A DNA stretch of 32,000 nt from Halorhodospira halophila SL1 (lineage in GTDB: Bacteria; Pseudomonadota; Gammaproteobacteria; Nitrococcales; Halorhodospiraceae): NCBI RefSeq assembly GCF_000015585.1, contig NC_008789.1:210001-242000 (forward strand), read 5' to 3'. The notes below the pieces were generated by a model, which was not told the origin of the DNA, searched no databases, and worked only from the letters and a program-made list of their open reading frames with translations. A program made the position numbers and the translations under genes. Positions within the stretch are counted from its first letter, which is position 1; every line of letters starts with the position of its first letter. Below are positions 1,675-32,000 of this stretch, piece by piece.

Positions 1675-3798
1675 GTGTTCACCCGACACCCGCTCACCTG
1701 GCTCACCGCCGCCCTCACCGCCCTTGTGCCCGCGCTGGCCCTGGCTGAAGAACCGGAAGAGAACCCGGCGCGCAGCGTGGCCGAACTGACCCAGGGCGCC
1801 GCCCAGACCCTTGGAGAGGAGCTGCGCGCGATCGGCGACCTGTTCAAGGGCTTCGAGGGCGAGGCCCTCGGCCCGCAGCTGTGGACACTCGCCCAGGAGC
1901 TGGCCGACCTGGGCCTGATCATCGCCGTCACCATCGGTCTGCTCCTGCTGCTGCGGCCGCTGGCGCGCCCCGTGTTCAACCGCGCCGAAAGCTGGGCGCA
2001 GCGAGGGGACGCCCGCCTGCGCACGGTCCGTCGCACCGTCGGTGTGCTCGGCGCCGCGCTGGCCGACCTGGCGACCATCTTCCTGGCCTGGATTGCCGGC
2101 TACGCCATCGCCCTGTCCTTCGTTGGCGATGTGGGCGGCATCGAGGCGCGGGAGTCTCTGTTCCTCAACGCCTTTCTGATGGTCGAGGGCGTCAAGGCTC
2201 TGCTGCGCATCCTGTTCGCGCGCCGCAACCCCCACCTGCGCCTGATTGCCACCGACGATGAGCATGCCAACTACTGGGGCAAACGGCTGGCCCGGATGGC
2301 CGGGCTGATCGGCTACGGCCTGCTGTTTATCGGCCCCTTTGCCACCATGGCCGTGGCTGAAGGCGTCGGGCAGCTGGCGGTGCTCATCGTCATGGTGCTC
2401 GCCTTCGGCTACGCAGTGGTCCTGGCCCTGCGCAACCGCCACGACGTGCGGGAGCGTCTCCAGGCCAGTGCCGCGCAGTCCAAGGTACTGTTCACCCGCA
2501 CCATGCTCTCGTCCCTGGCCTGGGTCTGGCACTGGGTGGTCATCCTCTATTTCGGTGCCCTGGCCGTGGTGACGATCACCCAACCGGACGCCGCACTGGC
2601 CTTCATGGGGCAGGCGACCCTACAGACCGCGCTGGCCATCGGCATCGGCGTCTTCCTGGCCATCGTCCTGACTCAGGCAACGGCCCGGCGCATCCGGCTC
2701 AGTGAGCGCAACCGACGCCACTTCCCGCTCCTGGAGCAACGGCTGAACAGCTACCTGCCGTTCGTCCTGAAGATCGTGCGAACCGCCATCATCGTGGTGG
2801 TCATCGCCACCGTACTCGATGCCTGGCAGCTGTTCGACTTCTCCGGATGGCTGACTTCCGAGGGGGGGCTGCAGACCCTCGGGGTCATCTTCTCGGTCTC
2901 CCTGGTGCTGCTCGCCGCCACGGCGGTGTGGCTCCTGGCAGCGAGCTTCATCGAGCACCGCCTGAACCCGGACGTGGGCCATGGTACGCCGTCGGCGCGG
3001 GAACAGACCCTGCTCACCCTGTTCCGCAACGCCATCGCGATCATCCTGATCACCATGACCACGATGATTGTCCTCGCCGAGATCGGCATCAACATCGGCC
3101 CGCTGATCGCCGGTGCCGGTGTCCTCGGCCTGGCCATCGGCTTCGGCGCCCAGAAACTGGTTCAGGACATCATCACCGGGGTCTTCATCCAGCTCGAGAA
3201 CGCCATCGATGTCGGCGATATCATCACCGCCGGCGGCGTCACCGGCACCGTCGAGAAGCTGACCATCCGCTCGGTGAACATCCGCGACCTGTTCGGGACC
3301 TACCACTTCATCCCGTTCTCGTCGGTGGACAGCGTCTCGAACTTCACCCGGCACTTCGCCTACCACGTCGGCAGCTACGGCGTGGCCTACCGGGAGGATG
3401 TCGACCAAGTGATTCCCGAGCTCGAGGCGGCCTACGAGGACCTCCAGCAGCATCCGAACGCGGATATCCGCAACGCCCTTTACGACGACTTCGCCGTGGA
3501 CGGGGTGGTCTCCCTGGGGGACAACTCGGTGAACATCCGGGTGCGCATCAAGACGGCACCGGGCATGCAGTGGGCCGTCGGCCGGGCCTACAACGGGCTG
3601 GTCAAGAAGCGCCTGGATGCCGCGGGTATCGAGATCCCCTTCCCACACCGGACAATCTACTTCGGGGAGGATCACCAGGGGAACGCTCCGCCAATGCGCC
3701 TAGCGCAGGTGGCCTCCGCCTCGCCGAGCCCGGCCAGTATCACTCCGGCGGCACCGACCGCCAGCGACCGGGTCCACCACGATCCTACGGAGGACTAG
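1675..3798 (+). CDS. Large mechanosensitive ion channel, MscS superfamily (YbiO/MscK-like architecture)
   Basis: GTG start after GGAGAAGGAG. It has an N-terminal signal-like segment (LTAALTALVPALALA) and many TM helices. The conserved MscS core reads GAGVLGLAIGFGAQKLVQDIITGVFIQLENAIDVGDII..G..GTVEKLTIRSVNIRD. Confidence 0.9.
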   Translation: MFTRHPLTWLTAALTALVPALALAEEPEENPARSVAELTQGAAQTLGEELRAIGDLFKGFEGEALGPQLWTLAQELADLGLIIAVTIGLLLLLRPLARPVFNRAESWAQRGDARLRTVRRTVGVLGAALADLATIFLAWIAGYAIALSFVGDVGGIEARESLFLNAFLMVEGVKALLRILFARRNPHLRLIATDDEHANYWGKRLARMAGLIGYGLLFIGPFATMAVAEGVGQLAVLIVMVLAFGYAVVLALRNRHDVRERLQASAAQSKVLFTRTMLSSLAWVWHWVVILYFGALAVVTITQPDAALAFMGQATLQTALAIGIGVFLAIVLTQATARRIRLSERNRRHFPLLEQRLNSYLPFVLKIVRTAIIVVVIATVLDAWQLFDFSGWLTSEGGLQTLGVIFSVSLVLLAATAVWLLAASFIEHRLNPDVGHGTPSAREQTLLTLFRNAIAIILITMTTMIVLAEIGINIGPLIAGAGVLGLAIGFGAQKLVQDIITGVFIQLENAIDVGDIITAGGVTGTVEKLTIRSVNIRDLFGTYHFIPFSSVDSVSNFTRHFAYHVGSYGVAYREDVDQVIPELEAAYEDLQQHPNADIRNALYDDFAVDGVVSLGDNSVNIRVRIKTAPGMQWAVGRAYNGLVKKRLDAAGIEIPFPHRTIYFGEDHQGNAPPMRLAQVASASPSPASITPAAPTASDRVHHDPTED

Positions 3799-3829
3799 AC
3801 CGACGCGCCGCAGCGGTGCGGCGCACCAC

Positions 3830-3867
3830 AAAAAAGGCCCGCCCCTCTGCAGGGGCGGGCCTTTTTT
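3830..3867. terminator. Bidirectional rho-independent terminator
   Basis: AAAAAA-GGCCCGCCCCT-ctgc-AGGGGCGGGCC-TTTTTT. This is a perfect 11-bp GC stem flanked by an A-run and a T-run, sitting between the convergent MscS and Rieske genes. Confidence 0.85.
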
Positions 3868-3909
3868 GTGGACTGCTGCCGTAATCCGGCAGCGCGCGGC
3901 GCCCGCGCG

Positions 3910-4527
3910 CTAGACCGGATCCGACATATCGGCATCCTCAGGGTGTTCCCCGATCACCAGCTTGTCGCCGTCCTGCCGATGCGGCGGTACCTCGAGGTTG
4001 GTCGGCGCAGGCTGCGCCCGATAGACCCGACCGGCCATATCGTAGCGAGCCCCGTGACAGGGGCAGAAGAACCCGCCGAGCCAGTCGGCGTCGAAGTCCA
4101 TCGGTTCGATCTCAGGGTAGTACGTGGGGATGCATCCCAGGTGGGTGCAGATCGGCACCACCACGAAGACCTCGGGGTCCACGGACCGGTGCTTGTTCCG
4201 GGCATACTCCGGCTGCTGATCCCGCTCGGAGTCCGGATCGCGCAGGCGGTCCACCATCTTGTCCAGCGTCTCCAGGTGCTCTTCGGTGCGGCTGACCACC
4301 CAGATCGGGCTGCCCTTCCACTCGAACTCAAGGCGCTGCCCCGGCTCGAGCTTGCTCACGTCGACCTCGATGGGCGCACCCTCCGCCTGCGCCTCGACGC
4401 TGGGGCGGAGAAAGCCGATGAACGGGACCGCGGCAAACACCGCGCCGACGCCACCGACCACGCTCGCCGCGCCGGTCAGGAACCGCCGTCGCCCACGATC
4501 CAGATCATCCGGTGCCTCGTTCGTCAT
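3910..4527 (-). CDS. Rieske [2Fe-2S] protein, ubiquinol-cytochrome c reductase iron-sulfur subunit (PetA) type
   Basis: Twin-arginine/TM anchor RGRRRFLTGAASVVGGVGAVFAAVPF. Rieske boxes CTHLGC and CPCHGARYD are present. SD AGGGGG precedes the ATG. Confidence 0.9.
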   Translation of the reverse strand: MTNEAPDDLDRGRRRFLTGAASVVGGVGAVFAAVPFIGFLRPSVEAQAEGAPIEVDVSKLEPGQRLEFEWKGSPIWVVSRTEEHLETLDKMVDRLRDPDSERDQQPEYARNKHRSVDPEVFVVVPICTHLGCIPTYYPEIEPMDFDADWLGGFFCPCHGARYDMAGRVYRAQPAPTNLEVPPHRQDGDKLVIGEHPEDADMSDPV

Positions 4528-4771
4528 GTAGACCCCCTGTTGCTACTTAATCCATTCATGCAACGGTATCGCCGGTTACGGCATAACGTAAAGGTTGCGG
4601 CGTGGAATGCAAGGCGCGGCCGTGCCCCGGCCTGCGGCATGTTACCGCATCGGCCAAGCTAGATGGGCCGTACACACCGCTTCCCCGGCCACCCCGACAG
4701 GCTTGCCTGCCTCCACCGTCGCGGTAGGCTGGACAATACTATACGCAGGAGACTCAATACGGGAGGGCGTC

Positions 4772-8448: not shown

Positions 8449-10656
8449 ATGCCCGCCCGCCTGAGACGGCTGCTGCTCTGCCTGCACCGCTGGATCACCC
8501 TCGCCCTCGCCCCCTTGTTTCTGGTGATCATCCTCAGCGGCGGCCTGCTGGCGCTCGAACCGGTGGTCCGGGACCTGGCGGCATCGCCGGGCGCGGAGGA
8601 ACCGATCCCGCTCGCGGAGCTGCAACGCTTCCTGGCCGAGGTCGACCCCCAGCAGCGCACCCGCGCCCTGACCCTGGAGCAGGGTGGGACCGCCGTGCTC
8701 GAACTCAGTCGTGCCGGGGAGCGCTGGCACGAGGCGTTCGACCTTGAACAGCGCACCTCCCTGGGCGAACGCGCCTACGGCGGTGCGTTCTTCCAGACCG
8801 TCCGACACCTGCACAAGGACCTGATGCTCGACCTGGCGGTGGTCGTCGAGGTCGCCAGCTACGCACTGATCCTGGTGCTGATCGCTGGCCCCTGGCTGGC
8901 CTGGCCCCGGCTGCGCCACAGCCTGACCCAGTGGCACACCTTGATCGGCTGGCTGACCCTGCCCCTGCTCCTGCTCGTCTCGATCACCGGCGTGCTGATG
9001 GCCCTGGAGCTCGGCACCCCCCGGCTGCCCCCGGTGGACCGCGACGCCGGACGCCTGGCCGTAGGCCCGGTCCTGCAACAACTCGAGGCCACCGAGACCA
9101 CCCACGTCTACCGCATGGAACGCTTCGAGCGCGCTGCCTGGACGGTGGAGGTCGACGGCACCGCAGGCCACCGGCAGCTGATCGTCACCGCCGAGGGGAT
9201 CACCCCGGTGGACGCCTACCCCGGCTGGGTCGCCGAGCTTCACCAGGGCACCTGGGCGGGCCCCTGGTCGGGACTCATCAACCTGCTGGCCGCCCTGGCC
9301 CTGCTGTTCCTGTTCATCAGCGGTGTCTGGCTCTGGGCACGCCGCTGGCTGGGCGGACGGCGCCGTGGTGACGCCGATGCGGATCTGCTCATCGCCTACG
9401 CCAGTCAGACGGGCACGGCGGCCCAACTGGCTGCGGAGACAGCGCGCGCGCTGCGCAGCGGCGGCGCCCGCATCGAAGAGGCCGCCCTGTCCGCCCTGGA
9501 GCCGAAGGCACTCGACGGCTATCGCTACACGCTGCTGATCGTCTCCACCTGTGGCGACGGGGACATGCCGGATACCGGACGCACCTTTCTGGCGGCCCTG
9601 GAAAGCTCGTCGTTGAACCGCACACGATTCGCACTGCTCGCCCTCGGCGACTCTAGTTACCGGCACTTCTGCGCCGCCGGGGAGAGCCTGCGCACCAGCC
9701 TGCGCCGTGCCGGGGCCGAAGAGGTTCTGCCCATGGCCCGAGCCGATGGCGCCCCGGAGGCCACCTGGCAGCTCTGGCTCGGCGAGGTGGCGGAACTGGT
9801 CGGCGTGCAGCCAGGCCAGACCAAACCGATCCCGGCCGATCAGCCCCTGCAGCTGACCCTGCGCCGGCGCGAACAGCTCAACGACCCGAACGACCCCATC
9901 ACCCAGGAAGTTTGGGGGCTGACGCTGGAGAGCGACACCCCTCTGACCTACCGCCCCGGGGACCTCCTGCTGGTGCGCCCCGGCGAGGGTGAGCCGGCAC
10001 GCCCCTACTCCATCGGTAGCACCCCGCTCGACGCCCCGCACCGGCTCGAACTGACCGTCGCCGTCACCAGCCGTACCGATGCACGGGGCAAAAACCGCCC
10101 CGGGAAGGCGTCCAGCCTCCTGGCGCAACGGCTTCAGCTAGGCGAAACCATCGCAACGTCCCTGCGCACCCACCGGCACATGCACCCACCAGACGACCCG
10201 CAGCAACCGATCATCCTGATCGCCGCCGGTTGCGGGATTGCCCCCTTCATCGGCTTCGTGGCCGAGCGCGCCGCCCAGAGCCAACGCGGCCCGGTCTGGC
10301 TGATCTTCGGCAACCGCCGCCGCCACGGTGACTTCTTCCACGCCGAGCGCCTGCAGCGGTGGCAGGCCCAGGGCGTGCTCACGCGGCTTGACCTGGCGTT
10401 CTCCCGAGACCCGGAGGACGGCGGCTACGTGCAAGACCGGATCGCGGACGCGCGGGCCATGCTGGTGGACTGGATGCTCCACCGCAACGCCCGGATCTAC
10501 GCCTGTGGACGACGCAGCACCATCGGAACGGCAGTGCCAACCGCACTGACCGAGGCCCTGCGCCAGTGCGGTGCTCCGGCCTATCGTGACCAGGCCGAGG
10601 CGGTCGTGCGAGGCTGGCAAAGCGACGGCCGACTGCGCCTCGACGTGATCGACTGA
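8449..10656 (+). CDS. Fusion protein: PepSY_TM-type membrane domain + flavodoxin-like FMN domain + FAD/NADPH ferredoxin-reductase domain (CysJ-like diflavin reductase)
   Basis: The N-terminal roughly 300 aa has 4 TM helices with His motifs (LHRWITL, HLHKD, QWHTLIGW, ELHQGTW). The flavodoxin motif is LLIAYASQTGTAAQLA. The FAD motif is RPYSIGS, the NADPH motifs are ILIAAGCGIAPFIGF and ..IYACG. Confidence 0.85.
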   Translation: MPARLRRLLLCLHRWITLALAPLFLVIILSGGLLALEPVVRDLAASPGAEEPIPLAELQRFLAEVDPQQRTRALTLEQGGTAVLELSRAGERWHEAFDLEQRTSLGERAYGGAFFQTVRHLHKDLMLDLAVVVEVASYALILVLIAGPWLAWPRLRHSLTQWHTLIGWLTLPLLLLVSITGVLMALELGTPRLPPVDRDAGRLAVGPVLQQLEATETTHVYRMERFERAAWTVEVDGTAGHRQLIVTAEGITPVDAYPGWVAELHQGTWAGPWSGLINLLAALALLFLFISGVWLWARRWLGGRRRGDADADLLIAYASQTGTAAQLAAETARALRSGGARIEEAALSALEPKALDGYRYTLLIVSTCGDGDMPDTGRTFLAALESSSLNRTRFALLALGDSSYRHFCAAGESLRTSLRRAGAEEVLPMARADGAPEATWQLWLGEVAELVGVQPGQTKPIPADQPLQLTLRRREQLNDPNDPITQEVWGLTLESDTPLTYRPGDLLLVRPGEGEPARPYSIGSTPLDAPHRLELTVAVTSRTDARGKNRPGKASSLLAQRLQLGETIATSLRTHRHMHPPDDPQQPIILIAAGCGIAPFIGFVAERAAQSQRGPVWLIFGNRRRHGDFFHAERLQRWQAQGVLTRLDLAFSRDPEDGGYVQDRIADARAMLVDWMLHRNARIYACGRRSTIGTAVPTALTEALRQCGAPAYRDQAEAVVRGWQSDGRLRLDVID

Positions 10657-15911: not shown

Positions 15912-17201
15912 ATGCCTCGCCCTTCGGATCAATGGTTCGATTACCGCCTCGAAAGCGCCTTCCAGCCGATCCTCAGCCTCAGCCACCGCCGCATTGTCGG
16001 CTACGAGGCCCTGCTACGCGGCAGATGCTCGACCACCGGGGCGCTGCTCCCTCCTGCCCGGGTCTTTGAGGCGGCCAACACACTCGAGCATCTGCACCAG
16101 CTCGAGCAACAGAGCCAGGCTGTGCATATCGCCAACTTCCAACGGTGCGGCGACCCCGAAGCGCCGCCGAAGTGGCTGTTCCTGAACGTCAGCCCGGAGA
16201 CCGTCGCCGACAACGCCTATCGTGACCTACTGCCGGAGGCACTCCGCTTCGGGGGGGTGCGGCAGCACCAGATCGTCGTGGAGTTGCTCGAAACCCCCGG
16301 CAACGAGACCACCCTGGCCGAGGCGGTGGATTACTTCCGGGGCCTGGGCTGCCTGGTCGCCCTCGACGACTTCGGCACCGGCTACTCGAATTTTGAACGC
16401 CTGTGGGCGCTTGAGCCCGATCTGGTCAAACTGGATCGCTCACTGATCCAGGGCGCCGCAGAGGCGCTCAACAGCAAACGCCGCATCCTCAGCAACCTGG
16501 TTGCCTTGATCCACGAGGCCGGGAGTCTGGTGGTCCTCGAGGGGGTCGAGAGCGAAGAGCAAGCGATGATCGCCCTGGATGCCGATATCGACCTGGTCCA
16601 GGGATTTTACTTCGCGCTGCCGACTCTGGACTCCCATGCTCCGGCGGAGCGCGGCCTGGCGCAGGTGCATCAGGTGACCGAACGCTTCACCGAGGAGACC
16701 CTTACCGCAGTCAACCGGGAGCAAATCACCCTGCAACCGTACGAGCAGACCTTCCTGCGGGCGGCAACCCGGCTGGACCGGGGCCATGGTCTGCGCGAGA
16801 GTTGTGCCGATCTCATGGCCCTGCGGGGCGTTCAGCGCTGCTTCGTCCTCAATCAACGCGGTGAACAAGTCGGGGAACACCTGCTGCCCGCCGGGCTGAA
16901 AGCCGATGCCCCGGTGACGACCGACCCCCGCCACGCTCCGCTCGTGGACACCCGTGGCGGCACTTGGTCGAGGCGACCGTACTTCCGCGATGCCCTGCTC
17001 GCCCCCCGGCGGCTGAAGATCTCTCGCCCCTACTTGTCCAGCACGGGCCGACACGTCTGCATCACCCTCTCGATCGCCACGCGCTCCCACGACGACGGCC
17101 ATTACTACGTGCTCTGCTGCGACGTCGCATGGTACCCGGGCGGCGCCCCCGAAAAAGCGCCTTGCGAAGGAACCTCCCGGGCCGCAGCGCCGAGTCCGTG
17201 A
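15912..17201 (+). CDS. EAL-domain c-di-GMP phosphodiesterase with C-terminal PAS/Cache-like (YkuI_C-type) domain
   Basis: The full set of EAL catalytic motifs is present: YEALLRG, FLNVS, VVELLE, ALDDFGTGYSNFERL, VKLDRSLI, VLEGVESEEQ, QGFYFALP. The C-terminal domain reads FVLNQRGEQV...GTWSRRPYFRDAL...ISRPYLSSTGRHVCITLS. Confidence 0.9.
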   Translation: MPRPSDQWFDYRLESAFQPILSLSHRRIVGYEALLRGRCSTTGALLPPARVFEAANTLEHLHQLEQQSQAVHIANFQRCGDPEAPPKWLFLNVSPETVADNAYRDLLPEALRFGGVRQHQIVVELLETPGNETTLAEAVDYFRGLGCLVALDDFGTGYSNFERLWALEPDLVKLDRSLIQGAAEALNSKRRILSNLVALIHEAGSLVVLEGVESEEQAMIALDADIDLVQGFYFALPTLDSHAPAERGLAQVHQVTERFTEETLTAVNREQITLQPYEQTFLRAATRLDRGHGLRESCADLMALRGVQRCFVLNQRGEQVGEHLLPAGLKADAPVTTDPRHAPLVDTRGGTWSRRPYFRDALLAPRRLKISRPYLSSTGRHVCITLSIATRSHDDGHYYVLCCDVAWYPGGAPEKAPCEGTSRAAAPSP

Positions 17202-23673: not shown

Positions 23674-24445
23674 CGGTACCCACCCCATGCAGCTCATGCA
23701 TCACGCCCCCCCATGCACGCACCAACCCGTGGTCGCCCTGGACGGCATCAGTCGCATCTTCGCGGGTGGCGGCGGGCTATCCCCGGTCGATCTGGCCGTC
23801 TCCCCCGGAGAGGTGGTCGGCGTCACCGGTGCCAGCGGCTGCGGCAAATCCACCCTCCTGCGCCTGATCGCCGGGCGCGAGACCGCGAGCAGCGGCGCCA
23901 TCGAACGGCATTACAGCCGCCTCGGCATGGTCTTCCAGGAACCCACCCTCCTGCCCTGGCTCACCGTCCAGGGGAATGTGGAACTGGTCCTGAGCCCATC
24001 CGAGCGACCGCGCGCGCGAGAGGCGCTGCATCACGTGGGACTCGAATCGGCAGCGAGCCAATACCCGGCGCAGCTCTCCGGCGGCATGCGGCAACGGGTT
24101 GGCATCGCCCGGGCGCTGGCCGGACACCCGGACCTGCTCCTGATGGACGAACCCTTCTCCAGCCTCGATTACATCAACCGGGCCGAGCTGCTTGAACTGG
24201 TGCGGGAACGGGTGCTGGGTGCCGGTGTGGCTGTGATCTTCGTCAGCCACGACGTCCGCGAGATCGTCCAGCTCTGCCACCGCATCCTGGTGATCGGCGG
24301 CACACCGGGGCGGGTTCAGGCCGAGCTACACCACCCGGCTCCGGCGCACGGCCCGCAACGCCGTCCCGGCGCCCTGGCGAACCTGGAGGAGCGCGTCCTC
24401 GCCGCTATCCGCGGCCATTCCGAAGCGAGATGTAGCTGCTCGTAA
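23666..24445 (+). CDS. ABC transporter ATP-binding protein (NitT/TauT family)
   Basis: It overlaps the permease stop. Walker A GASGCGKST, Q-loop FQEP, signature LSGGMRQRV and Walker B LLLMDEPFSSLD are present. Confidence 0.9.
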   Translation: MSDGTHPMQLMHHAPPCTHQPVVALDGISRIFAGGGGLSPVDLAVSPGEVVGVTGASGCGKSTLLRLIAGRETASSGAIERHYSRLGMVFQEPTLLPWLTVQGNVELVLSPSERPRAREALHHVGLESAASQYPAQLSGGMRQRVGIARALAGHPDLLLMDEPFSSLDYINRAELLELVRERVLGAGVAVIFVSHDVREIVQLCHRILVIGGTPGRVQAELHHPAPAHGPQRRPGALANLEERVLAAIRGHSEARCSCS

Positions 24446-24446
24446 T

Positions 24447-24536
24447 TGGCGGAGAGGGAGGGATTCGAACCCCCGGAGGGCGCATGCCCTCACCCGATTT
24501 CAAGTCGGGTGCTTTCGACCGCTCAGCCACCTCTCC
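24447..24536 (-). tRNA. tRNA-Ser (anticodon UGA), class II with long variable arm, CCA encoded
   Basis: The reverse complement folds as GGAGAGG acceptor / D-arm / CCCGA-CUUGAAA-UCGGG (anticodon UGA) / 18-nt variable arm / GGGGG-TTCGAAT-CCCTC / CCTCTCC-G-CCA. Confidence 0.95.
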
Positions 24537-24617
24537 TCGCCGCGCGATGTTACCGCACGGCGGGCAGACGCACCAACCGAGTCGATCTCAAAGGCCGCGC
24601 AGAACCGCCGGGCGCGG

Positions 24618-25046
24618 TCACCGTTGATCCCCCGGGAGGGGGTACTGCATCTCCAGGGTGTTTCCGGCCGGGCCGGATCGATAGCGAACGTGCCACATCA
24701 GCCCGCGGATGATGCCGATCCCCCGCCCCCCTTCGGCGCAGTCCGCGCCGCTTCGCACGTCCACCGAAGCCGGCTCGGTGGTCATCGGCCACCCTTGGTC
24801 GTGCACCTGCAGCACCAGCCAGTCGGCCCGCTGGTGGACCGTCACGCGGACCACACGGCTCGGGCAGTTGCCGCAGGCGTGGATGATGGCGTTGTTGATC
24901 GCCTCGCACAGGGCCAACTCCACCGCCCCGGCGGCCTCCTCGCCCAGGCCGATCTGCTGGGCCAGCCGCTCCCACGCCCGGCACGCCTCGGCGACCCGAC
25001 GCAGCTCGGCGTTCAGCTCCAGCTCCAGGAGCGTGTTGGACTGCAC
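24618..25046 (-). CDS. Anti-sigma-factor-type serine protein kinase (RsbW/SpoIIAB, HATPase_c_2)
   Basis: GTG start 3 nt after the STAS stop. N-box LCEAINNAIIHA, G1 VHDQGWP and G2 GGRGIGIIRGLM are present. Confidence 0.85.
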   Translation of the reverse strand: MQSNTLLELELNAELRRVAEACRAWERLAQQIGLGEEAAGAVELALCEAINNAIIHACGNCPSRVVRVTVHQRADWLVLQVHDQGWPMTTEPASVDVRSGADCAEGGRGIGIIRGLMWHVRYRSGPAGNTLEMQYPLPGDQR

Positions 25047-25049
25047 CCC

Positions 25050-25394
25050 TCATTCCGCCAGGGCAGCGACGGCCTGCTCGGCGTCGGCGTACATGGGGAA
25101 AACGCGCTGATCGAGCCGGGTAACGCGAAACAACTGCACCACCTTGGGGGCGTGAACGCCGGCCAGGACCACGGAGCCTGCGGGGTCGATGTTCTTGCGC
25201 AGCGACAGCAGCGCGGAGAGGCCGCTGGAATCGATGAAGCTGACCCGGCTTAGGTCCACCACCATTCGCGTAACACCGAGATCCACTGCTTCCAGTGCGG
25301 CCCGTTTGAAGGCCGGCGCCTCGCTGGCGTCGAGGCGATCGACGTCCACCTGGAGGACAGCCACACCGTCCCGGTCCGCGCATGTATAGGCCAT
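25050..25394 (-). CDS. STAS-domain anti-sigma-factor antagonist (RsbV/SpoIIAA-like)
   Basis: The size (114 aa) fits. The phospho-serine motif FIDSSGLSALLSL is conserved. Confidence 0.88.
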   Translation of the reverse strand: MAYTCADRDGVAVLQVDVDRLDASEAPAFKRAALEAVDLGVTRMVVDLSRVSFIDSSGLSALLSLRKNIDPAGSVVLAGVHAPKVVQLFRVTRLDQRVFPMYADAEQAVAALAE

Positions 25395-25419
25395 CGTGCC
25401 ACTCCTTTCTAATCGCCCT

Positions 25420-26607
25420 CTAAGCCGTGCGCCCGGTCACCCTCAGGCACGCAAAGGTGATGTCGTCTTCCGGCGGTTGCTGACTGTGCTCTACCATCAT
25501 TCGCTGCACCCCGCGGATAACCCCATCACTCGGGCAACCGCGCCAGTCCCGCAGCACCACCTCCAACCGCGCGCTGGACAGGTGGGCGCCCACCGCATCC
25601 TCCAGGTCCACCAGGCCGTCCGTGTAGATGAACAGCAGGTCTCCTTCCGCAACCGCAACACGGCCCTCTTCATACCGGCCCCAGCCGCCGATGCCCACCG
25701 GCAATCCGCCCGCTTCCAATGGGATGCTTCCGCCGCGCTGTCGGATCAGCAGACCGGGCGGGTGACCCGCATTAGCGTAACGGATCTCTCGCGCGGCGGG
25801 ATCGTAGACGAGGACGATCAGGGTGAAAAACTTGTCGAACCGCTCCAGCGGATACTCCGCATCCAGGGCATCCAACAACGCCGCCGGTGATACCTGCCGG
25901 CGCTCGGCCACCCACTGGCGAATCGACTGCGCCACCGAGAATGACACCAGCGCCGCGGATACTCCGTGGCCACTGACGTCCAGCATATAGAGCACGAGCC
26001 GCCCATCTTCCAGCGGGATGGTAACGAAGAGATCCCCCCCGAGCCCTGCACTTGGCCGGTAGTACCAGTCCAACGCATACCCGGCCCCTGGCGGCGGCGC
26101 GGATGGCAGCAGGCTCTGCTGGATCCGCGACGCCACACGCAGGTCTTCCTCGATCCGCTGCTGCTGCGCTTCGAGCTGACGGTAATTGGCCGCCAGCAGG
26201 TCGGAGCGGACCTTAAGCTTGACGTGCGCCCCCACCCGGGCCCGCACCACGGCGCTGTTGAACGGCTTGGTGATGTAGTCCACCGCGCCGCGGGCCAGAC
26301 CATCGGCCTCATCCTCCCAGTCGCCCCGGGCGGAGATGAAGATGACCGGGACACCCCGCGTACGCGGCTCACCCTGCAGGGCATCGAGGACGTCGTACCC
26401 GCTGATCCCCGGCATGGTGATATCCAGCAGGACGAGGTCGGGCAGGCGCTCACGGGCGACGATATCCAGGGCCTGTTCACCACTCCGGGCGACCAGGACG
26501 CGGTAGGCATCGCCGAGCAACCGCCCGAGCAACTCCAGGTTGATCGGCTCATCGTCCACGACCAGGACGATGGGGCGACCGCTGACCTCGTCCGCGCTGG
26601 GATCCAT
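25420..26607 (-). CDS. Response-regulator receiver fused to PP2C (SpoIIE/RsbU-type) serine phosphatase
   Basis: REC motifs: VLVVDDEP, DLVLLDITMPGISG, PVIFISA, ITKP. PP2C motifs: GGDLF, MLDVSGHGVSAAL, YANAGHPP, IYTDGL. Confidence 0.9.
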   Translation of the reverse strand: MDPSADEVSGRPIVLVVDDEPINLELLGRLLGDAYRVLVARSGEQALDIVARERLPDLVLLDITMPGISGYDVLDALQGEPRTRGVPVIFISARGDWEDEADGLARGAVDYITKPFNSAVVRARVGAHVKLKVRSDLLAANYRQLEAQQQRIEEDLRVASRIQQSLLPSAPPPGAGYALDWYYRPSAGLGGDLFVTIPLEDGRLVLYMLDVSGHGVSAALVSFSVAQSIRQWVAERRQVSPAALLDALDAEYPLERFDKFFTLIVLVYDPAAREIRYANAGHPPGLLIRQRGGSIPLEAGGLPVGIGGWGRYEEGRVAVAEGDLLFIYTDGLVDLEDAVGAHLSSARLEVVLRDWRGCPSDGVIRGVQRMMVEHSQQPPEDDITFACLRVTGRTA

Positions 26608-26703
26608 GAAGCGCCCCTCCTCCGATCCGGACCTTGGCTTAGTCGGTTTCCTGGGCGGCCATGACTGTTACGATACAGATACACAGGACTTGGCGGGAAT
26701 GCC

Positions 26704-27741
26704 ATGCCGACACCGAGAAAGGGAATGGTCGGGCTGTTGCTGGCGGTCGTCATCGGCGTCAGCACCGCCATCTACCTCCGCATCCACCCCGATATCGTCC
26801 ACTTCCGGCTCGCCGAGTGGCTCGATCACCTCGACCGCGGCGCGGTGGCCACCGATCACCTTGAGCGCAGCATCGCGGCGGGGCTGGATCACCCGGACCG
26901 GCTGCGCGAGGCGACCCTCACCCTGCTCGGACGCGATGAGGCCGAGCCGGCCTTCGTCGGCGCATGGCGCCTGAATCAGAGCGACGCCCTGGACCCCGGG
27001 ACACGCTCGGCCTTCGCCGGACACTTCGATCGCCTCGGCCAACCCGAACGTGCCCTGGCGCTTTACGAGTCGAACGACGGACTCGGCCCCGCCGGGATCA
27101 TGCACCACGCCTCGCTACTGGACCGCGCCGGACAGCCCGAAGCCGCCATGACACGCTATCGGGAACTGCTCCGGGAGCTGCCCGCGGAGCGGGTCGACAC
27201 GGGCCAGAGCACGAAACCGGAAGACCTGGCAGACCCCGAAACCACCCAGGCCCGGCTGGAACTGGCCCGCCTGCTGGCCGAGCGCGGGCGGCACGACGAA
27301 GCGATCACCGAGTACCGGAGGGTCCTCGACGACCAACCGGAACATCAGACCGCCCGGCTCGGCCTGGCCCGCACCCTCTTCTGGGCCGGCGACACCGAAC
27401 GGGCCGCTGCCGAGATCGACGGCCTCGAGACCACCGACCTGGAGCCGCAGGACCGGCTCATGCTGGCCGACCTGCAGCTCAGCCGTGGCGGCTACGAAAG
27501 GGCCATCGACCTCTACCGGGATTATCTGGAGGGCCACCCGGACGACCAGGAGACCCGGTACAAGAAGGCGCTGGCCCTGGCCTGGTCGGCCCGTTACGAC
27601 GCCGCCATCGAGGCCTTTGACCAGGTTCTCCAGGCTCGACCACACGACCGGCAGCTGATGCGCCAGTTCGCTCAGGTTCTGACCTGGGCCGATCAACCCG
27701 ACCGCGCCATCGAGCTCCTGCAGAAAAGCCTGGAGGACTAG
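26704..27741 (+). CDS. Membrane-anchored TPR-repeat protein
   Basis: An N-terminal TM helix (MVGLLLAVVIGVSTAIYL) is followed by repeated 34-aa-like A/L/R/E-rich units (e.g. ARLELARLLAERGRHDEAITEYRRVLDDQPEH). Confidence 0.75.
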   Translation: MPTPRKGMVGLLLAVVIGVSTAIYLRIHPDIVHFRLAEWLDHLDRGAVATDHLERSIAAGLDHPDRLREATLTLLGRDEAEPAFVGAWRLNQSDALDPGTRSAFAGHFDRLGQPERALALYESNDGLGPAGIMHHASLLDRAGQPEAAMTRYRELLRELPAERVDTGQSTKPEDLADPETTQARLELARLLAERGRHDEAITEYRRVLDDQPEHQTARLGLARTLFWAGDTERAAAEIDGLETTDLEPQDRLMLADLQLSRGGYERAIDLYRDYLEGHPDDQETRYKKALALAWSARYDAAIEAFDQVLQARPHDRQLMRQFAQVLTWADQPDRAIELLQKSLED

Positions 27742-27742
27742 T

Positions 27743-30154
27743 TTGGGGGGTGCCACGCAACGGATGGCCATCGGCATCGCCGCCGGCGCAGTGCTACTCG
27801 CCGGCGTCATGCCCCTAAGACAAGCCGCGGCGCAACCGCCGCCGATCCCCCCTGCGGAGGGGAGCCTGGTGGCTGCGCACGAGTACATCAGCGACCGGGG
27901 CGCCCGCCACCAGCTGGCCCGGTTGCTCTCCTATCAGCCACAGCGGCGCGCCGAGGCCCTGTGGCACTACCGGCGGCTTCTGGAGGACACACCGCACGAC
28001 CCCGCGCTGGTCACCGAGACCGCCGAGGTGCTCCAGTGGATGGGCGAGGAGGCAGCCGCCGTCGACCTGCTGACCTCCCTGCCCGCGGGCACTGAGCAAA
28101 CGCGCGCGGGCCTGCTCTTGCAAGCCCGGGTGGAACGCTCGCTGGGGCGGGCCGGCCGCGCCCGAGCCATTCTCGAGGGGCTGCGCCCCCTCGAGGGCCG
28201 CACCGAGCAGCTCCTCGACGCGGCAGCCCTCACCGACTCCGGCGCCCTCCACGGCGCCGAGGCTGTCGTCCGCGGGCTACTCGCCGAATCCCCCGACGAC
28301 CCCGGCCTCCGGCTGCAACTCGGCGATCTCCTTCAGGCCCAGGGCCGGATCTACGCCGCCGAGCACCACTACGCCCGGCTGCTCGCCGACACCCCGGACC
28401 AGACACTGGCCGCGGAGCGCCTCCGGCGCCTGCCCCACCGTGGTCCGGCCGAGCCCGCCGACACCCCGGAACCGATCGCGCCCCAAGAGGCGCCGGCCGC
28501 ACCGCAGACCGCACGGGATCACCTGGCGACTGCGGAACAGGCCCTGCAGGGCGGCGACATCGCGTCGGCCGAGCAGGCCGTCCGCCGCGCCCTGGAACTC
28601 GAGCCGGAACTCACCCGTGCGGACTACCTGCTGGCGGAAGTGCTCATCGCCCGCAACGCCCTCGCCGAGGCCGAGGAGCAGCTCCAGCAGGTCGCCACGC
28701 GCTTCCCGGACGCCACCGAAGCCCGCCTGAACCTGGCGCGGCTGGCGTCCTGGCAGGGTGACTACGACCGCGCCCTGGACCACTACGACGCCCTCGCCGC
28801 TGAGCACCCGACGGACCCGACTTTCCCCTTGGAGGCGGCCCGGCTCGCCGGTTGGGCCGGGGAGCCCGACCAGGCGCGAGAGCGCTACGCAACGCTGCTG
28901 ACGCTTCTTCAGGCCGAGCCGCCCGCCGCGACCAGCACCCCGGGGCCACTTACCGCCGCGCCCCCCGGGCCGGCACTGCCAACACCGACGGACCCGGCCT
29001 ACCCCGCCGCCGCCGAACACCGCGCCGTCCACCAGGAGGCCCGGGCCAAGGCTCTGGTCCACGACCGCCATCCCCGGACCGCCCTGACGGTGCTCCAGCG
29101 CGCCGCAGAGTTCCAGCCCCACAATCTCGAGACGGCCTTCGACCAGGCCCAGATCGAGTGCACCCTGGGGCTGTGCGGCGCCGAACAGGCCACCTATGAG
29201 CGGGTTCTGGACGCCGTCCCCAACCACCCCCAGGCTGCACGCCAGCAGGCCCTGCTCAAACGCCAGCGGGGTCCTCGGGCCGGTCTCCACGCCGACTACC
29301 GCAACGAGTCCGGGCGTGATGCCGAGATGGAAACCATCGGCTATGGGGTCCACGGCAGCCTGCCCGTGGCCACACGCGCCCGGGGCCACGTCTCAGTGGA
29401 CCGGTGGCGCTACCGGTTCGACCCGGACCCCGACGAGGACATCGACGAGGCCCGGGGCAACCGGGTGCACGGCACCCTCAGCGGGGTGGCCAGTACCCAA
29501 CTGCGCTGGCGGACCGAACTCGCCTACACCCGCTTCGACGACCCCGACGTCAAGGACTCGATTGAGGGTCGAGCCGAGATGGATTACCACGTGAGTGATC
29601 GCTTACGGACCCGGGGCGGGATCGCCCAGGAGCGGGTCCTGCGTAACCCCAAGACCGCCAGCGAGCGCATCAATCGGCGCCTCGCCGAGGCCGAGCTGGA
29701 CTACTACGCCGACCGCCGCGTGGATCTGGGCGCCACGGCGCGCACCGCCCACTACTCCGACGGCAACCGCGGCCTCCTCCTGCAGTTCCAGCCGCAGGTG
29801 CGGGTGACCGAGCACCCGCGCCAGCTGACCGCCGGCGCCACCTTCCAGTACCGCGATACGCAAGACGAAGAGGACCTGTACTGGACGCCCCAGGACTACC
29901 TCGCCGCCGGCCCGTTCCTGGAGTGGCATCACGACCTGGCGCGGGTTTTCGGGTGCCGGGCGCTCGACCATTACTACCGGGTCCGCCTCTCGGCATACCG
30001 GGACAGCGAGCACAACACCGGCACCCGCCTGGCAGCCGCCTACGCCTGGGACGCCGGCGACCATCTGCGGTTATCCGCCGACGCCTTCATCGAACGATCC
30101 AGTGAGTGGGACGCCGAGGGCCTCCACGTGAACGCCACCTGGCATTTCCACTGA
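27743..30154 (+). CDS. Outer-membrane exopolysaccharide export protein candidate: N-terminal TPR array + C-terminal beta-barrel (PgaA/BcsC-like architecture)
   Basis: TTG start 5 nt after GGAGGA (alternative ATG at 27764). It has a signal-like N-terminus AIGIAAGAVLLAGVMPLRQAAA and about 480 aa of TPR-like repeats. The last roughly 290 aa show alternating hydrophobic/polar beta-strand patterning and end in ..NATWHF (terminal Phe). Confidence 0.75.
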   Translation: MGGATQRMAIGIAAGAVLLAGVMPLRQAAAQPPPIPPAEGSLVAAHEYISDRGARHQLARLLSYQPQRRAEALWHYRRLLEDTPHDPALVTETAEVLQWMGEEAAAVDLLTSLPAGTEQTRAGLLLQARVERSLGRAGRARAILEGLRPLEGRTEQLLDAAALTDSGALHGAEAVVRGLLAESPDDPGLRLQLGDLLQAQGRIYAAEHHYARLLADTPDQTLAAERLRRLPHRGPAEPADTPEPIAPQEAPAAPQTARDHLATAEQALQGGDIASAEQAVRRALELEPELTRADYLLAEVLIARNALAEAEEQLQQVATRFPDATEARLNLARLASWQGDYDRALDHYDALAAEHPTDPTFPLEAARLAGWAGEPDQARERYATLLTLLQAEPPAATSTPGPLTAAPPGPALPTPTDPAYPAAAEHRAVHQEARAKALVHDRHPRTALTVLQRAAEFQPHNLETAFDQAQIECTLGLCGAEQATYERVLDAVPNHPQAARQQALLKRQRGPRAGLHADYRNESGRDAEMETIGYGVHGSLPVATRARGHVSVDRWRYRFDPDPDEDIDEARGNRVHGTLSGVASTQLRWRTELAYTRFDDPDVKDSIEGRAEMDYHVSDRLRTRGGIAQERVLRNPKTASERINRRLAEAELDYYADRRVDLGATARTAHYSDGNRGLLLQFQPQVRVTEHPRQLTAGATFQYRDTQDEEDLYWTPQDYLAAGPFLEWHHDLARVFGCRALDHYYRVRLSAYRDSEHNTGTRLAAAYAWDAGDHLRLSADAFIERSSEWDAEGLHVNATWHFH

Positions 30155-30198: not shown

Positions 30199-31893
30199 AT
30201 GGGTCAACGCCGCTTCCTGAACCGCAGCCTGCTGATCATCCTCACCGGCGCCGCCATCCTCAGCGTCTTCACCTACCTGATCGGTCGGACGGCGCTGTTC
30301 CTGTTCGCCGACTACCTGTGGTACGAGAAGACCGCGGCCGCATTCCTGCTACTCGCCGAGGCGTTCATCATGGTCCACGCCCTCGGCTACTTCCTGAACA
30401 TCTACCACGCCAATCGCACCCGGCCCGTGGACCCCGCAGCGCCCACCGCCGAACGCGAGATCCCCTCCGCCACGGCACCGCGCTTTTCCTACGAGCAGGC
30501 CCTGAAGATCCTCCCGACGGAAAACCCGCCAGAACTCGCGGTGGTCGTGGCCGCACACAACGAGCCCCTGTGGCTGATTGAAGAGACCCTGACCTGCTTC
30601 TACAACCTGACCTACCCCAACAAGCGGATCTTCCTGCTCGACGATACCCGCTACGACCCATCGGAACAGCGCTCCGCGGAGATGGCCAAGTACCGCCAGG
30701 CGATCGAGGACCTGTGCCAGGGCATCGGCGTCCACCTCTTCCGGCGCCCCTGGCGCGGGGCCAAGGCCGGCATGATCAATGACTTCCTGGCCTTCCTCAA
30801 CGACCGCGCGCCAGCCGGCTTCGAGTTCACCCGCAGTCCGCTGGATGTCGAGCCCTTCAATATCGAATACGTGGCCGTCTTCGACGCCGATATGAACCCG
30901 TTGCCCGAATTCGCCGAACCGCTGATCGCCCAGCTCGAGAGCGAACCGAACCTGGCCTTCATCCAGACACCGCAGTACTACTCCAACTTCGAGACCAACC
31001 GGGTCGCGCGGGCCGCCGGCATGCAGCAGGCGATCTTCTACGAGTACATCTGCGAGGGGAAAAGCTCCCAGGACGCCATGTTCTGCTGCGGTACCAATGT
31101 CATCTTCCGCCGCGCAGCGCTGGAAGACGTCGGCGGCTTCGACGAGACCTCGGTCACCGAGGATTTTGCCACCTCGCTGCGCTTTCACGCACGCGGGTGG
31201 CGCTCCGCCTACATCAACCGGCTCAGTGCGTTCGGGCAGGGTCCGCAGGACCTGGGCGCCTACTTCAAGCAGCAATTCCGCTGGGCGCTGGGCACCGTGG
31301 GGCTGTTCCGCACGGTCCTCCAGGCCATGGTGCGCACGCCGCGCCAGCTTTCGCTGGCCAAGTGGTGGGAGTACTCCCTTTCCGGCACCCACTACTTCGT
31401 CGGCTGGGTGTTCCTGATCATGGTGCTCAGCCCGACCCTCTACCTCCTGCTGGGCGTGCCGAGCTTCTTCGCCCGGGCGGATATCTACCTGCTGTTCTTC
31501 TTCCCCTACATCCTGCTGACGATCACCCTGTTCGCCTTCGCTATGAGTCAGCGCAAGTATCGGCTGCGCGAGCTGGTCACCGGGATCGTCCTTCAGGCCA
31601 CGGCCTTCCCCGTCTATATCAAGGCCAGCCTGCTGGGCATTCTGGGGGTCCGGGGAAGCTTCACGGTCACCCCGAAGGCCGGTAGCAACGGGCTCCCCCT
31701 GCGCGCCCTGTGGCCCCACCTGGCACTGATCGTGCTGTGCACCGCGGCGATCACCTGGGGCGTACTGCGTGGCGTCTTTGAGCAGGAGCCGCTCTGGGCG
31801 CTGGTGGTCAACACCCTCTGGTGCAGCTACCACCTCACGCTGCTGCTGGCTGTCTTCTACTTTAATCATCAACCGCAGGAGCAGACGGCATGA
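30199..31893 (+). CDS. Processive family-2 glycosyltransferase, cellulose-synthase-like, without PilZ domain
   Basis: I chose the ATG at 30199. It has 2 N-terminal TM helices. GT-A motifs: VVVAAHNEP, FLLDDT, VFDADMNP, QTPQYY, FCCGTNVIFRR, TEDFATS, QQFRWALG (QxxRW). About 5 C-terminal TM helices follow, and the protein ends soon after the last one. Confidence 0.9.
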   Translation: MGQRRFLNRSLLIILTGAAILSVFTYLIGRTALFLFADYLWYEKTAAAFLLLAEAFIMVHALGYFLNIYHANRTRPVDPAAPTAEREIPSATAPRFSYEQALKILPTENPPELAVVVAAHNEPLWLIEETLTCFYNLTYPNKRIFLLDDTRYDPSEQRSAEMAKYRQAIEDLCQGIGVHLFRRPWRGAKAGMINDFLAFLNDRAPAGFEFTRSPLDVEPFNIEYVAVFDADMNPLPEFAEPLIAQLESEPNLAFIQTPQYYSNFETNRVARAAGMQQAIFYEYICEGKSSQDAMFCCGTNVIFRRAALEDVGGFDETSVTEDFATSLRFHARGWRSAYINRLSAFGQGPQDLGAYFKQQFRWALGTVGLFRTVLQAMVRTPRQLSLAKWWEYSLSGTHYFVGWVFLIMVLSPTLYLLLGVPSFFARADIYLLFFFPYILLTITLFAFAMSQRKYRLRELVTGIVLQATAFPVYIKASLLGILGVRGSFTVTPKAGSNGLPLRALWPHLALIVLCTAAITWGVLRGVFEQEPLWALVVNTLWCSYHLTLLLAVFYFNHQPQEQTA

Positions 31894-32000
31894 ACCACCG
31901 CCGACTGATCCGCTGGGCCGGCGGCGCCCTGATCTGCGCCCACGGACTGCTCCCCGCCGGACTCCCGGCGGGCAGCGCCCCGCCCCCCGCCGCACCCCCG
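31890..32000 (+). CDS. Start of a downstream gene (truncated by the window); signal-peptide-like, Pro-rich
   Basis: ATGA translational-coupling overlap with the GT2 stop. The product begins MNHRRLIRWAGGALICAHGLLPAGLPAGSAPPPAAPP. Only 37 codons are visible. Confidence 0.35.
   Translation, partial: MNHRRLIRWAGGALICAHGLLPAGLPAGSAPPPAAPP

Follow-up and report, generated by a model that had tools for sequence, protein, structure and literature searches.

Partner-switching modules of the PP2C phosphatase, STAS protein, and RsbW kinase families are co-encoded with a sigma factor in Bacillus, as in the RsbU/RsbV/RsbW-SigB system and the B. cereus RsbY system, and B. cereus RsbY shares the architecture in which a receiver domain is joined to the phosphatase (REC-PP2C). 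Sigma-independent switches acting over biofilm polysaccharides are known from few models, namely Vibrio Syp, Sinorhizobium Bgr, Pseudomonas Hsb, and Anabaena HenR. The STAS protein SypA of Vibrio fischeri is active when unphosphorylated, and its target has not yet been identified (PMC8256260). In Anabaena, the REC-PP2C protein HenR and the kinase Alr3423 form, together with the STAS-glycosyltransferase All4160, a system that controls an extracellular polysaccharide (EPS) enzyme directly, again with the unphosphorylated form active, and this type of control was considered cyanobacteria-specific by its authors (PMC13555669). Here, we examined a 32,000-nucleotide (nt) stretch of the genome of Halorhodospira halophila SL1 (NC_008789.1, positions 210,001–242,000; called “the window” below, with positions counted from its first base), in which three minus-strand genes encoding a REC-PP2C phosphatase, a STAS protein, and an RsbW/SpoIIAB-type kinase (the triad) lie divergently from an EPS operon. 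The comparative analysis of this locus and its relatives supports the view that the triad is a partner-switching module without a sigma factor gene, and we consider it likely that the triad is a dedicated regulator of the adjacent EPS cluster.

The locus resembles SypE/SypA of V. fischeri in that a single-domain STAS protein with a conserved phosphorylatable Ser (S56 in both) stands in a polysaccharide locus without a cognate sigma factor, and in that RsbW-type kinase and PP2C activities are gated by a receiver domain. However, SypE is one kinase-REC-PP2C protein, whereas the REC-PP2C (395 amino acids [aa]) and the kinase (142 aa) are separate here; furthermore, syp is an 18-gene locus of the Wzx/Wzy type, whereas the present cluster is synthase-dependent and consists of TPR-porin, GT2, GH26, and PilZ genes. 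[quoted passage not shown] In the BgrSTUWV-BgrR/BgsBA system of Sinorhizobium meliloti, which makes a mixed-linkage beta-glucan, a sigma-less switch and cyclic di-GMP (c-di-GMP) control a processive GT2 beta-glycan synthase, as is proposed here, and BgsA binds c-di-GMP itself through its C-terminal region. BgrV, however, acts on a diguanylate cyclase, whereas no cyclase gene was detected in the locus studied here, which carries a separate PilZ protein for the predicted sensing of c-di-GMP. In the HptB-HsbR-HsbA(-HsbD) system of Pseudomonas aeruginosa, a phosphorelay feeds a REC-PP2C and the STAS protein HsbA is the output to non-sigma targets, as may be the case here, and relatives of the window locus carry Hpt and hybrid kinases beside the module; in contrast, HsbR also holds a kinase domain, the outputs are FlgM and a cyclase, and the system is not embedded in an EPS cluster. 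The Bacillus Rsb systems and B. cereus RsbY draw on these three protein families too, with identical phospho-chemistry, but are co-encoded with a sigma factor, which was detected neither here nor in related loci. On the polysaccharide side, the cluster shares with Bcs, Pga, and Pel a processive synthase in the inner membrane, an exporter of the TPR-porin type, a glycoside hydrolase in the periplasm, and control by c-di-GMP and PilZ; it differs in that the PilZ module is separate rather than forming the synthase C-terminus (as in BcsA), GH26 takes the place of GH8 as the hydrolase, and a partner switch is integrated. No BcsB-like gene was detected in the EPS cluster. Thus, with Syp, Bgr, Hsb, and HenR as known precedents, what is new is the integration of a partner switch and a stand-alone PilZ protein into a widespread, uncharacterized synthase-dependent cluster.

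The triad comprises a REC-PP2C (SpoIIE-type) serine phosphatase of 395 aa (25420–26607, minus strand), which is its signal-receiving component; a single-domain STAS protein of 114 aa (25050–25394, minus strand), which is the proposed output of the module; and an RsbW/SpoIIAB-type GHKL serine kinase of 142 aa with a GTG start (24618–25046, minus strand). A preliminary description of this DNA had read these genes as a three-gene minus-strand operon with a REC-PP2C, a STAS protein bearing the DSSGLS motif, and an RsbW/SpoIIAB-type kinase, separated from the EPS genes by a 96-bp divergent spacer, and both the arrangement and the assignments were borne out. In the list of open reading frames (ORFs), the gaps are 25 nt between the phosphatase and STAS genes (25395–25419) and 3 nt between the STAS and kinase genes (25047–25049), and Shine-Dalgarno-like sequences (GGAGGAGG and AAGGAG) precede the phosphatase and STAS starts. 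The phosphatase matched the Pfam families Response_reg (E 8.9e-26) and SpoIIE/PP2C (E 5.5e-40), the 114-aa protein matched STAS (E 3.1e-14), and the kinase matched HATPase_c_2 (E 5.1e-33), the RsbW/SpoIIAB-type kinase fold. The receiver domain has the residues D18/D19, D62, S92, and K114, with Asp62 (codon 26422–26424) as the predicted phospho-acceptor, and the phosphatase domain has the PP2C motifs GGDLF (190–194), DVSGHG (210–215), NAGHP, YTDG, and EDDIT, of which the metal-binding motifs were kept across 32 cluster-linked PP2Cs. The DSSGLS motif of the STAS protein occupies residues 55–60, and the predicted phosphorylatable residue is Ser56 (codon 25227–25229) in the context D55-S56-S-G-L; among cluster-linked STAS proteins, D55 was kept in 51/51 and S56 in 50/51. 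The kinase has the N box EAINNAIIHA (48–57), the G1 box HDQG, and the G2 box EGGRGIG, and all three boxes were kept in 30 cluster-linked kinases. None of the catalytic or phospho-acceptor residues is missing from the three proteins. The nearest solved structure to the phosphatase is the P. aeruginosa RssB-type REC-PP2C 3eq2 (E 6.5e-31), and the relatives of the STAS protein in the PDB are the anti-sigma antagonists SpoIIAA, TM1442, and RsfB. A PDB sequence search with the kinase gave no match, and against NCBIfam it showed weak matches to RsbA, SpoIIAB, and RsbW, all below the cut-off. Conserved orthologues of each of the three proteins exist in other genomes, so the triad consists of real genes and not chance ORFs, and, judged from their sequences, its products are ordinary members of the PP2C, STAS, and RsbW partner-switching families.

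The conservation of the linkage between the triad and the EPS cluster was evaluated with a scan for GT2 genes at one genome per species, which yielded 378 relatives; the best 80 loci, whose GT2 genes were 53–87% identical and represented at least five phyla, were analyzed with 10-kb flanks. Iterated profile searches seeded with the window proteins and run against all six-frame ORFs recovered the cluster of TPR, TPR, TPR-porin, GT2, and GH26 genes nearly everywhere in the analyzed loci. The GT2 was far more widely conserved than the phosphatase, with many matches of 53–60% identity in Thermodesulfobacteriota, Chromatiaceae, Verrucomicrobiota, and others. The divergent layout of triad and EPS genes was kept in all five of the five Halorhodospira-type loci (phosphatase identity 100, 76, 72, 64, and 63%). 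In the 33 loci whose flanks reach at least 3.5 kb on each side (the full-flank loci), the STAS gene was present in 27/33, the PilZ protein gene in 27/33, the PP2C gene in 23/33, and the kinase gene in 17/33. Of the 62 loci having upstream sequence, 34 carried the STAS gene in the same direction as the first TPR gene and no more than 600 bp upstream of it, and it stood on the downstream side in 10 more; in Desulfovibrionaceae, a convergent kinase-STAS-PP2C unit comes just after the PilZ gene. In the 1.27 Mb of fetched loci, 49 STAS genes were detected, and 44 of them occupy one or the other of these two placements, which excludes chance adjacency. The STAS-attached cluster occurred in Halorhodospira, Thiocapsa (Chromatiaceae), many Thermodesulfobacteriota, Geobacter, Opitutaceae, and a Riflebacterium (Riflebacteria), and across these taxa the attached STAS gene came with or without PP2C and kinase genes. 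The co-occurrence check that the preliminary description had proposed for the neighborhood of triad and TPR, porin, and GT2 genes therefore came out in favor of the linkage, which is conserved across genomes.

The linkage was also seen in the reverse direction. A metagenomic REC-PP2C that is 42% identical to the window protein (L089) is followed in order by STAS, kinase, TPR, TPR, GT2, and GH26 genes, and the opposite strand of that contig carries a PilZ gene, an Hpt gene, and a gene for a CHASE3-PAS hybrid histidine kinase. When metagenomes were scanned with a 12-sequence STAS alignment and the contigs of at least 4 kb were ranked, the STAS gene adjoined TPR or porin genes in 8 of the 10 best-ranked contigs; of the other two, one ends within the phosphatase gene, and on the other the STAS gene has only a receiver gene as its neighbor. 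STAS relatives of lower rank were located in other contexts. A STAS search of a large protein database returned only 7 matches, its word prefilter performing poorly on a 114-aa protein, and one distant REC-PP2C homologue (P0010, on L090) runs off its contig.

The operon opposite the triad begins with a gene for a 345-aa TPR protein (26704–27741, plus strand, ATG start; Pfam TPR_19, E 5e-22, and other TPR families), which was conserved in 82 loci. It is followed by a gene for a PgaA/BcsC-like export porin with TPRs and a C-terminal beta-barrel (27743–30154, plus strand; Pfam TPR families), whose gene call starts at 27764 and gives 796 aa, and whose barrel showed a weak match to PgaA_barrel (E 1.8e-5, below the cut-off). 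The third gene encodes a 564-aa BcsA-like processive GT2 synthase (30199–31893, plus strand; Pfam Glyco_trans_2_3, E 3e-25, and Cellulose_synt, E 5e-11) with the DxD (FDADM), TED (VTEDFA), and QxxRW (QQFRW) motifs and the gating loop FTVTPK, all invariant or nearly so in 25 homologues; it scored 214 bits against the NCBIfam CelA domain, for which the cut-off is 699. The GT2 family is unusually conserved, with 53–60% identity across phyla and 160 invariant alignment columns. The start of the GH26 glycoside hydrolase gene (31890–32000, plus strand) overlaps the GT2 stop at 31890, and the gene, 351 aa in full, continues past the window; its Pfam match was Glyco_hydro_26 (E 7.5e-13), and a GH26 partner hints that the polymer is a beta-mannan or another non-cellulose beta-glycan. 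To read the operon beyond base 32000, we used a longer contig with identical genes (L004, in which 2843–4718 spans GH26 and PilZ); there, the last gene, at about 32935–33765 in window numbering and on the plus strand, encodes a stand-alone PilZ protein of 276 aa. No equivalog in NCBIfam reached its cut-off for any of the eight proteins, indicating that the cluster is not a curated named system, and our literature search on this gene combination (GH26, cellulose-synthase-like GT2, and STAS/PilZ; Halorhodospira) found no description. The cluster is thus a widespread, so far unnamed synthase-dependent EPS cluster with TPR, TPR-porin, PilZ-less BcsA-like GT2, GH26, and stand-alone PilZ components.

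The assignment of the last gene product as a PilZ protein is based on family-wide evidence. The protein itself came without a precomputed Pfam annotation. Three Halorhodospira orthologues matched Pfam PilZ at E 1e-4 to 2e-3, and 34 of 41 family members matched it at E <=0.01 (best 1.4e-7); the c-di-GMP-binding signatures RxxxR and DxSxxG were kept in the alignment of 54 members, and a profile search of the PDB with this family gave no match. The protein also carries a C-terminal region of roughly 150 aa. The preliminary description had supposed that PilZ/c-di-GMP control of the synthase was missing and that the triad may substitute for it. The former supposition holds for the GT2 itself, in which Pfam detected neither a PilZ match nor a STAS domain, but not for the control as such, because a conserved stand-alone PilZ gene ends the operon; the synthase is thus not without c-di-GMP control, and the PilZ module is supplied in trans. 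The latter supposition was not upheld, since the STAS and PilZ proteins co-occur: among the 33 full-flank loci, 26 had both, 5 had neither, and 2 were discordant (Fisher p = 1.5e-4, uncorrected for phylogeny). This co-occurrence suggests that the inputs act jointly instead of replacing each other. On the GT2 tree, the loci lacking them belong essentially to a single clade, which implies one or two joint losses, and in several taxa the PilZ and STAS genes are adjacent in the order PilZ-STAS-TPR. In the vicinity of the window locus, the only c-di-GMP-metabolizing gene encodes an EAL-domain protein of 429 aa (15912–17201, plus strand).

On the other flank of the triad lie a tRNA gene and an ABC transporter gene, opposite the TPR, TPR-porin, and GT2 genes. 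The tRNA-Ser(UGA) gene (24447–24536, minus strand) lies 81 nt past the stop codon of the kinase gene and has the orientation of the triad. This non-EPS flank differs among the Halorhodospira-type loci, being occupied by tRNA-Ser and ABC transporter genes, by aldo-keto reductase and PAS kinase genes, or by MlaA. The intergenic spacer common to the triad and the EPS operon (26608–26703) is 96 nt long, and a TATCGTAACAG-like element at 26665–26675 on the triad strand was the sole block conserved in the alignment of five Halorhodospira-type spacers. A promoter and terminator scan of 24300–27000 found no consensus sigma-70 promoter and no terminator. In H. halochloris (L002, about 9700–9900), the corresponding spacer measures 342 nt; it includes a long inverted repeat, nearly perfect, which the window does not have.

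The distribution of the signaling genes among the loci bears on which component is the output. The STAS gene was kept more often than the kinase gene, as is expected if the STAS protein and not an anti-sigma kinase is the output, as in SypA and HsbA. The input domain, which was always on the PP2C protein, varied while the STAS protein stayed constant: it was REC in Halorhodospira and many Thermodesulfobacteriota, often with Hpt or hybrid kinases, CHASE plus PAS in Desulfovibrionaceae, and PAS or none elsewhere, and in Opitutaceae the PP2C was fused to the kinase. This pattern indicates that the phosphatase is the regulated step. Neither an Hpt nor a histidine kinase gene was found among window ORFs of at least 60 aa, in agreement with the preliminary description, which had placed the histidine kinase for the receiver outside the window; in three relatives (L089, L011, and L035), Hpt and hybrid kinase genes adjoin the module.

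A second, independent and minimal type of operon was found on eight metagenomic contigs (L114, L115, L126, L130, L141, L148, L150, and L171; e.g., L115:3275-8318), in which a sensor-PP2C-RsbW kinase fusion gene is followed by a cellulose-synthase-like GT2 gene and a STAS gene. Its GT2 is about 720 aa long, has no PilZ domain, and is 30% identical to the window GT2, and its STAS protein is 44% identical to the window STAS protein. The sensor regions differ, being PilZ-REC-PAS in L115, PAS-GAF in L130, and PAS-PAS in L171. The synthase gene is the only non-signaling gene of this operon, and in L115 the c-di-GMP sensor is upstream of the STAS protein and no cyclase is present. By its composition, the minimal operon points to the synthase as the probable target. 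A hard-wired cluster and a minimal synthase operon, taken together, narrow the candidate STAS targets to the GT2 and its PilZ partner, which makes the question directly testable.

No sigma factor gene was detected: when the 6606 ORFs from the window and from 87 related loci were searched with RpoE and SigB seed sequences, there were zero matches with E values up to 10, a search that very divergent extracytoplasmic function (ECF) sigma factors may escape, and no Sigma70 Pfam domain was present in neighboring genes. The earlier observation that no sigma factor gene lies next to the triad thus extends to its relatives. The triad has the PP2C motifs, the single-domain STAS with its Ser, and the GHKL kinase of a canonical sigma-regulating module, but not the co-encoded sigma gene that defines such modules. 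A canonical anti-sigma switch would nevertheless act if the kinase sequestered a distant sigma factor (RpoS, as with Shewanella CrsR, or one of ECF or FliA type) and dephosphorylated STAS freed it for EPS transcription from the 96-nt spacer. The kinase does belong to the RsbW/SpoIIAB family, and the spacer holds a conserved element and lacks a sigma-70 consensus promoter, so that an alternative sigma factor could be used there. However, canonical systems co-encode their sigma factor, whereas more than 85 related loci showed no such gene beside them, conservation is lowest for the kinase among the members (17/33 versus 27/33 for STAS), and in most taxa the STAS gene is inside the EPS operon itself; we regard this explanation as distinctly improbable. 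The idea that the triad is a general stress or physiology switch whose adjacency to the EPS genes is coincidental could draw on the intact triad of a Halorhodospira lineage that has deleted the synthase and on similar triads in unrelated contexts (L088 and L091). It is scarcely credible in the face of a linkage that spans at least five phyla, several gene orders, and different input domains, with almost every STAS gene in the fetched loci attached to the cluster. Coincidental adjacency was rejected on the strength of this cross-phylum linkage and of the 44/49 STAS genes attached to the cluster.

The remaining alternative concerns the route and not the existence of EPS control: the STAS protein, in one of its phosphorylation states, may bind and control a diguanylate cyclase encoded elsewhere in Halorhodospira, and c-di-GMP would then activate the synthase via the stand-alone PilZ protein. 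Such routes are established in S. meliloti, where BgrV controls the cyclase BgrR for the GT2 BgsA, and in P. aeruginosa, where HsbA controls HsbD (PMC8457831, PMC13438883). The co-occurrence of the PilZ and STAS proteins fits this route as well, and about 11/80 loci carry a GGDEF gene no farther than 500 bp from the module. These neighbors (e.g., L010:1457-2527 and L036:1485-2402) are genes for REC-GGDEF or other GGDEF diguanylate cyclases, and hybrid histidine kinases, some with Hpt, adjoin the module elsewhere. On the other hand, most clusters have no nearby GGDEF gene (one was present within 10 kb in 9/33 full-flank loci), none was found among window ORFs of at least 60 aa, and in the minimal [PilZ-REC-PAS-PP2C-kinase]-GT2-STAS operon the c-di-GMP sensor is upstream of the STAS protein and a cyclase is absent. 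An indirect route through c-di-GMP therefore appears unlikely, with a chance that is small yet appreciable.

Action of the STAS protein on the machinery rather than on transcription is what the comparative data appear to favor, and we infer the target of the STAS protein, the post-translational level of control, and the direction of the switch. The same points favor a scheme in which the STAS protein's phosphorylation state is the final signal to the synthase complex, with c-di-GMP entering the same decision. Several observations weigh against this interpretation, among them the GGDEF genes close to the module in some loci, which fit the indirect c-di-GMP route. The target of the STAS protein is a candidate assigned from genome comparison, and the co-occurrence statistics are uncorrected for phylogeny. 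In one clade, the cluster functions with neither STAS nor PilZ, indicating that the module is accessory, and the kinase gene is missing near about half of the clusters. Some near relatives of the STAS and REC-PP2C proteins also sit in other contexts (L088, L091, and L097): the REC-PP2C homologue P0014 (L088) stands beside nucleotide-sugar genes and not this cluster, and a STAS homologue at 59% (L091) forms a triad with a PAS-PP2C and a kinase gene on a contig of 4.5 kb; EPS genes are not visible on that contig, which makes this case uninformative. The protein families are thus not exclusive to this cluster. Finally, in Halorhodospira sp. GCA_022227925.1 (L001:6343-8881), a clean, in-place deletion has taken out everything between porin residue 522 and GH26 residue 315, which are now joined (residues 523 of the porin through 314 of GH26 are lost). 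The barrel, all of the GT2, and most of GH26 are gone, whereas the triad and the PilZ gene are intact at 58–83% identity; either this deletion is recent or the module has another role. The STAS-less clade was also checked for a replacement partner, and only an occasional PP2C with an MBL/ODP-like gene was seen, without a consistent pattern. In some loci of that clade (L040:3443-4970 and L082:3361-5231), a PP2C gene and a gene whose product resembles, by eye, a metallo-beta-lactamase (MBL) or di-iron (ODP-like) protein lie divergently upstream of the first TPR gene.

Taking these points on both sides together, we give about even chances to the full statement that the triad is a sigma-independent partner switch whose STAS protein acts directly on the synthase/PilZ complex. 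In such a switch, a histidine kinase or phosphorelay encoded elsewhere would act on Asp62 of the receiver domain and thereby set the activity of the PP2C phosphatase. The RsbW-type kinase would phosphorylate the STAS protein at Ser56, and the phosphatase would strip this phosphate. By analogy with SypA and All4160, it is most likely the unphosphorylated STAS protein that would engage the GT2, the trans-acting PilZ protein, or both at the post-translational level. This engagement would permit polymerization and export through the TPR-porin, with GH26 trimming the polymer, so that polymer synthesis would need both c-di-GMP and the phospho-signal. More generally, we tentatively propose, at rather less than an even chance, that single-domain STAS proteins regulated by phosphorylation serve BcsA-like synthases without PilZ as direct allosteric partners, with c-di-GMP entering via a PilZ protein in trans or a PilZ domain fused to the PP2C-kinase.

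In the cluster described here, the switch is hard-wired into one conserved gene set, and in the minimal operon the synthase is its only companion. Contrary to a recent suggestion (PMC13555669), the control of polysaccharide enzymes by STAS phosphorylation is probably not confined to cyanobacteria. The locus and its relatives point to polymer synthesis being doubly gated, by a phospho-signal and by c-di-GMP, in sulfate reducers, purple sulfur bacteria, and Verrucomicrobiota. If the proposal of a direct allosteric partnership is true, these loci, which come from at least five phyla, would represent an undescribed and widespread class of synthase-dependent systems for polysaccharides that are “phospho-STAS-gated,” and would identify a long-sought kind of target for SypA-like STAS outputs.

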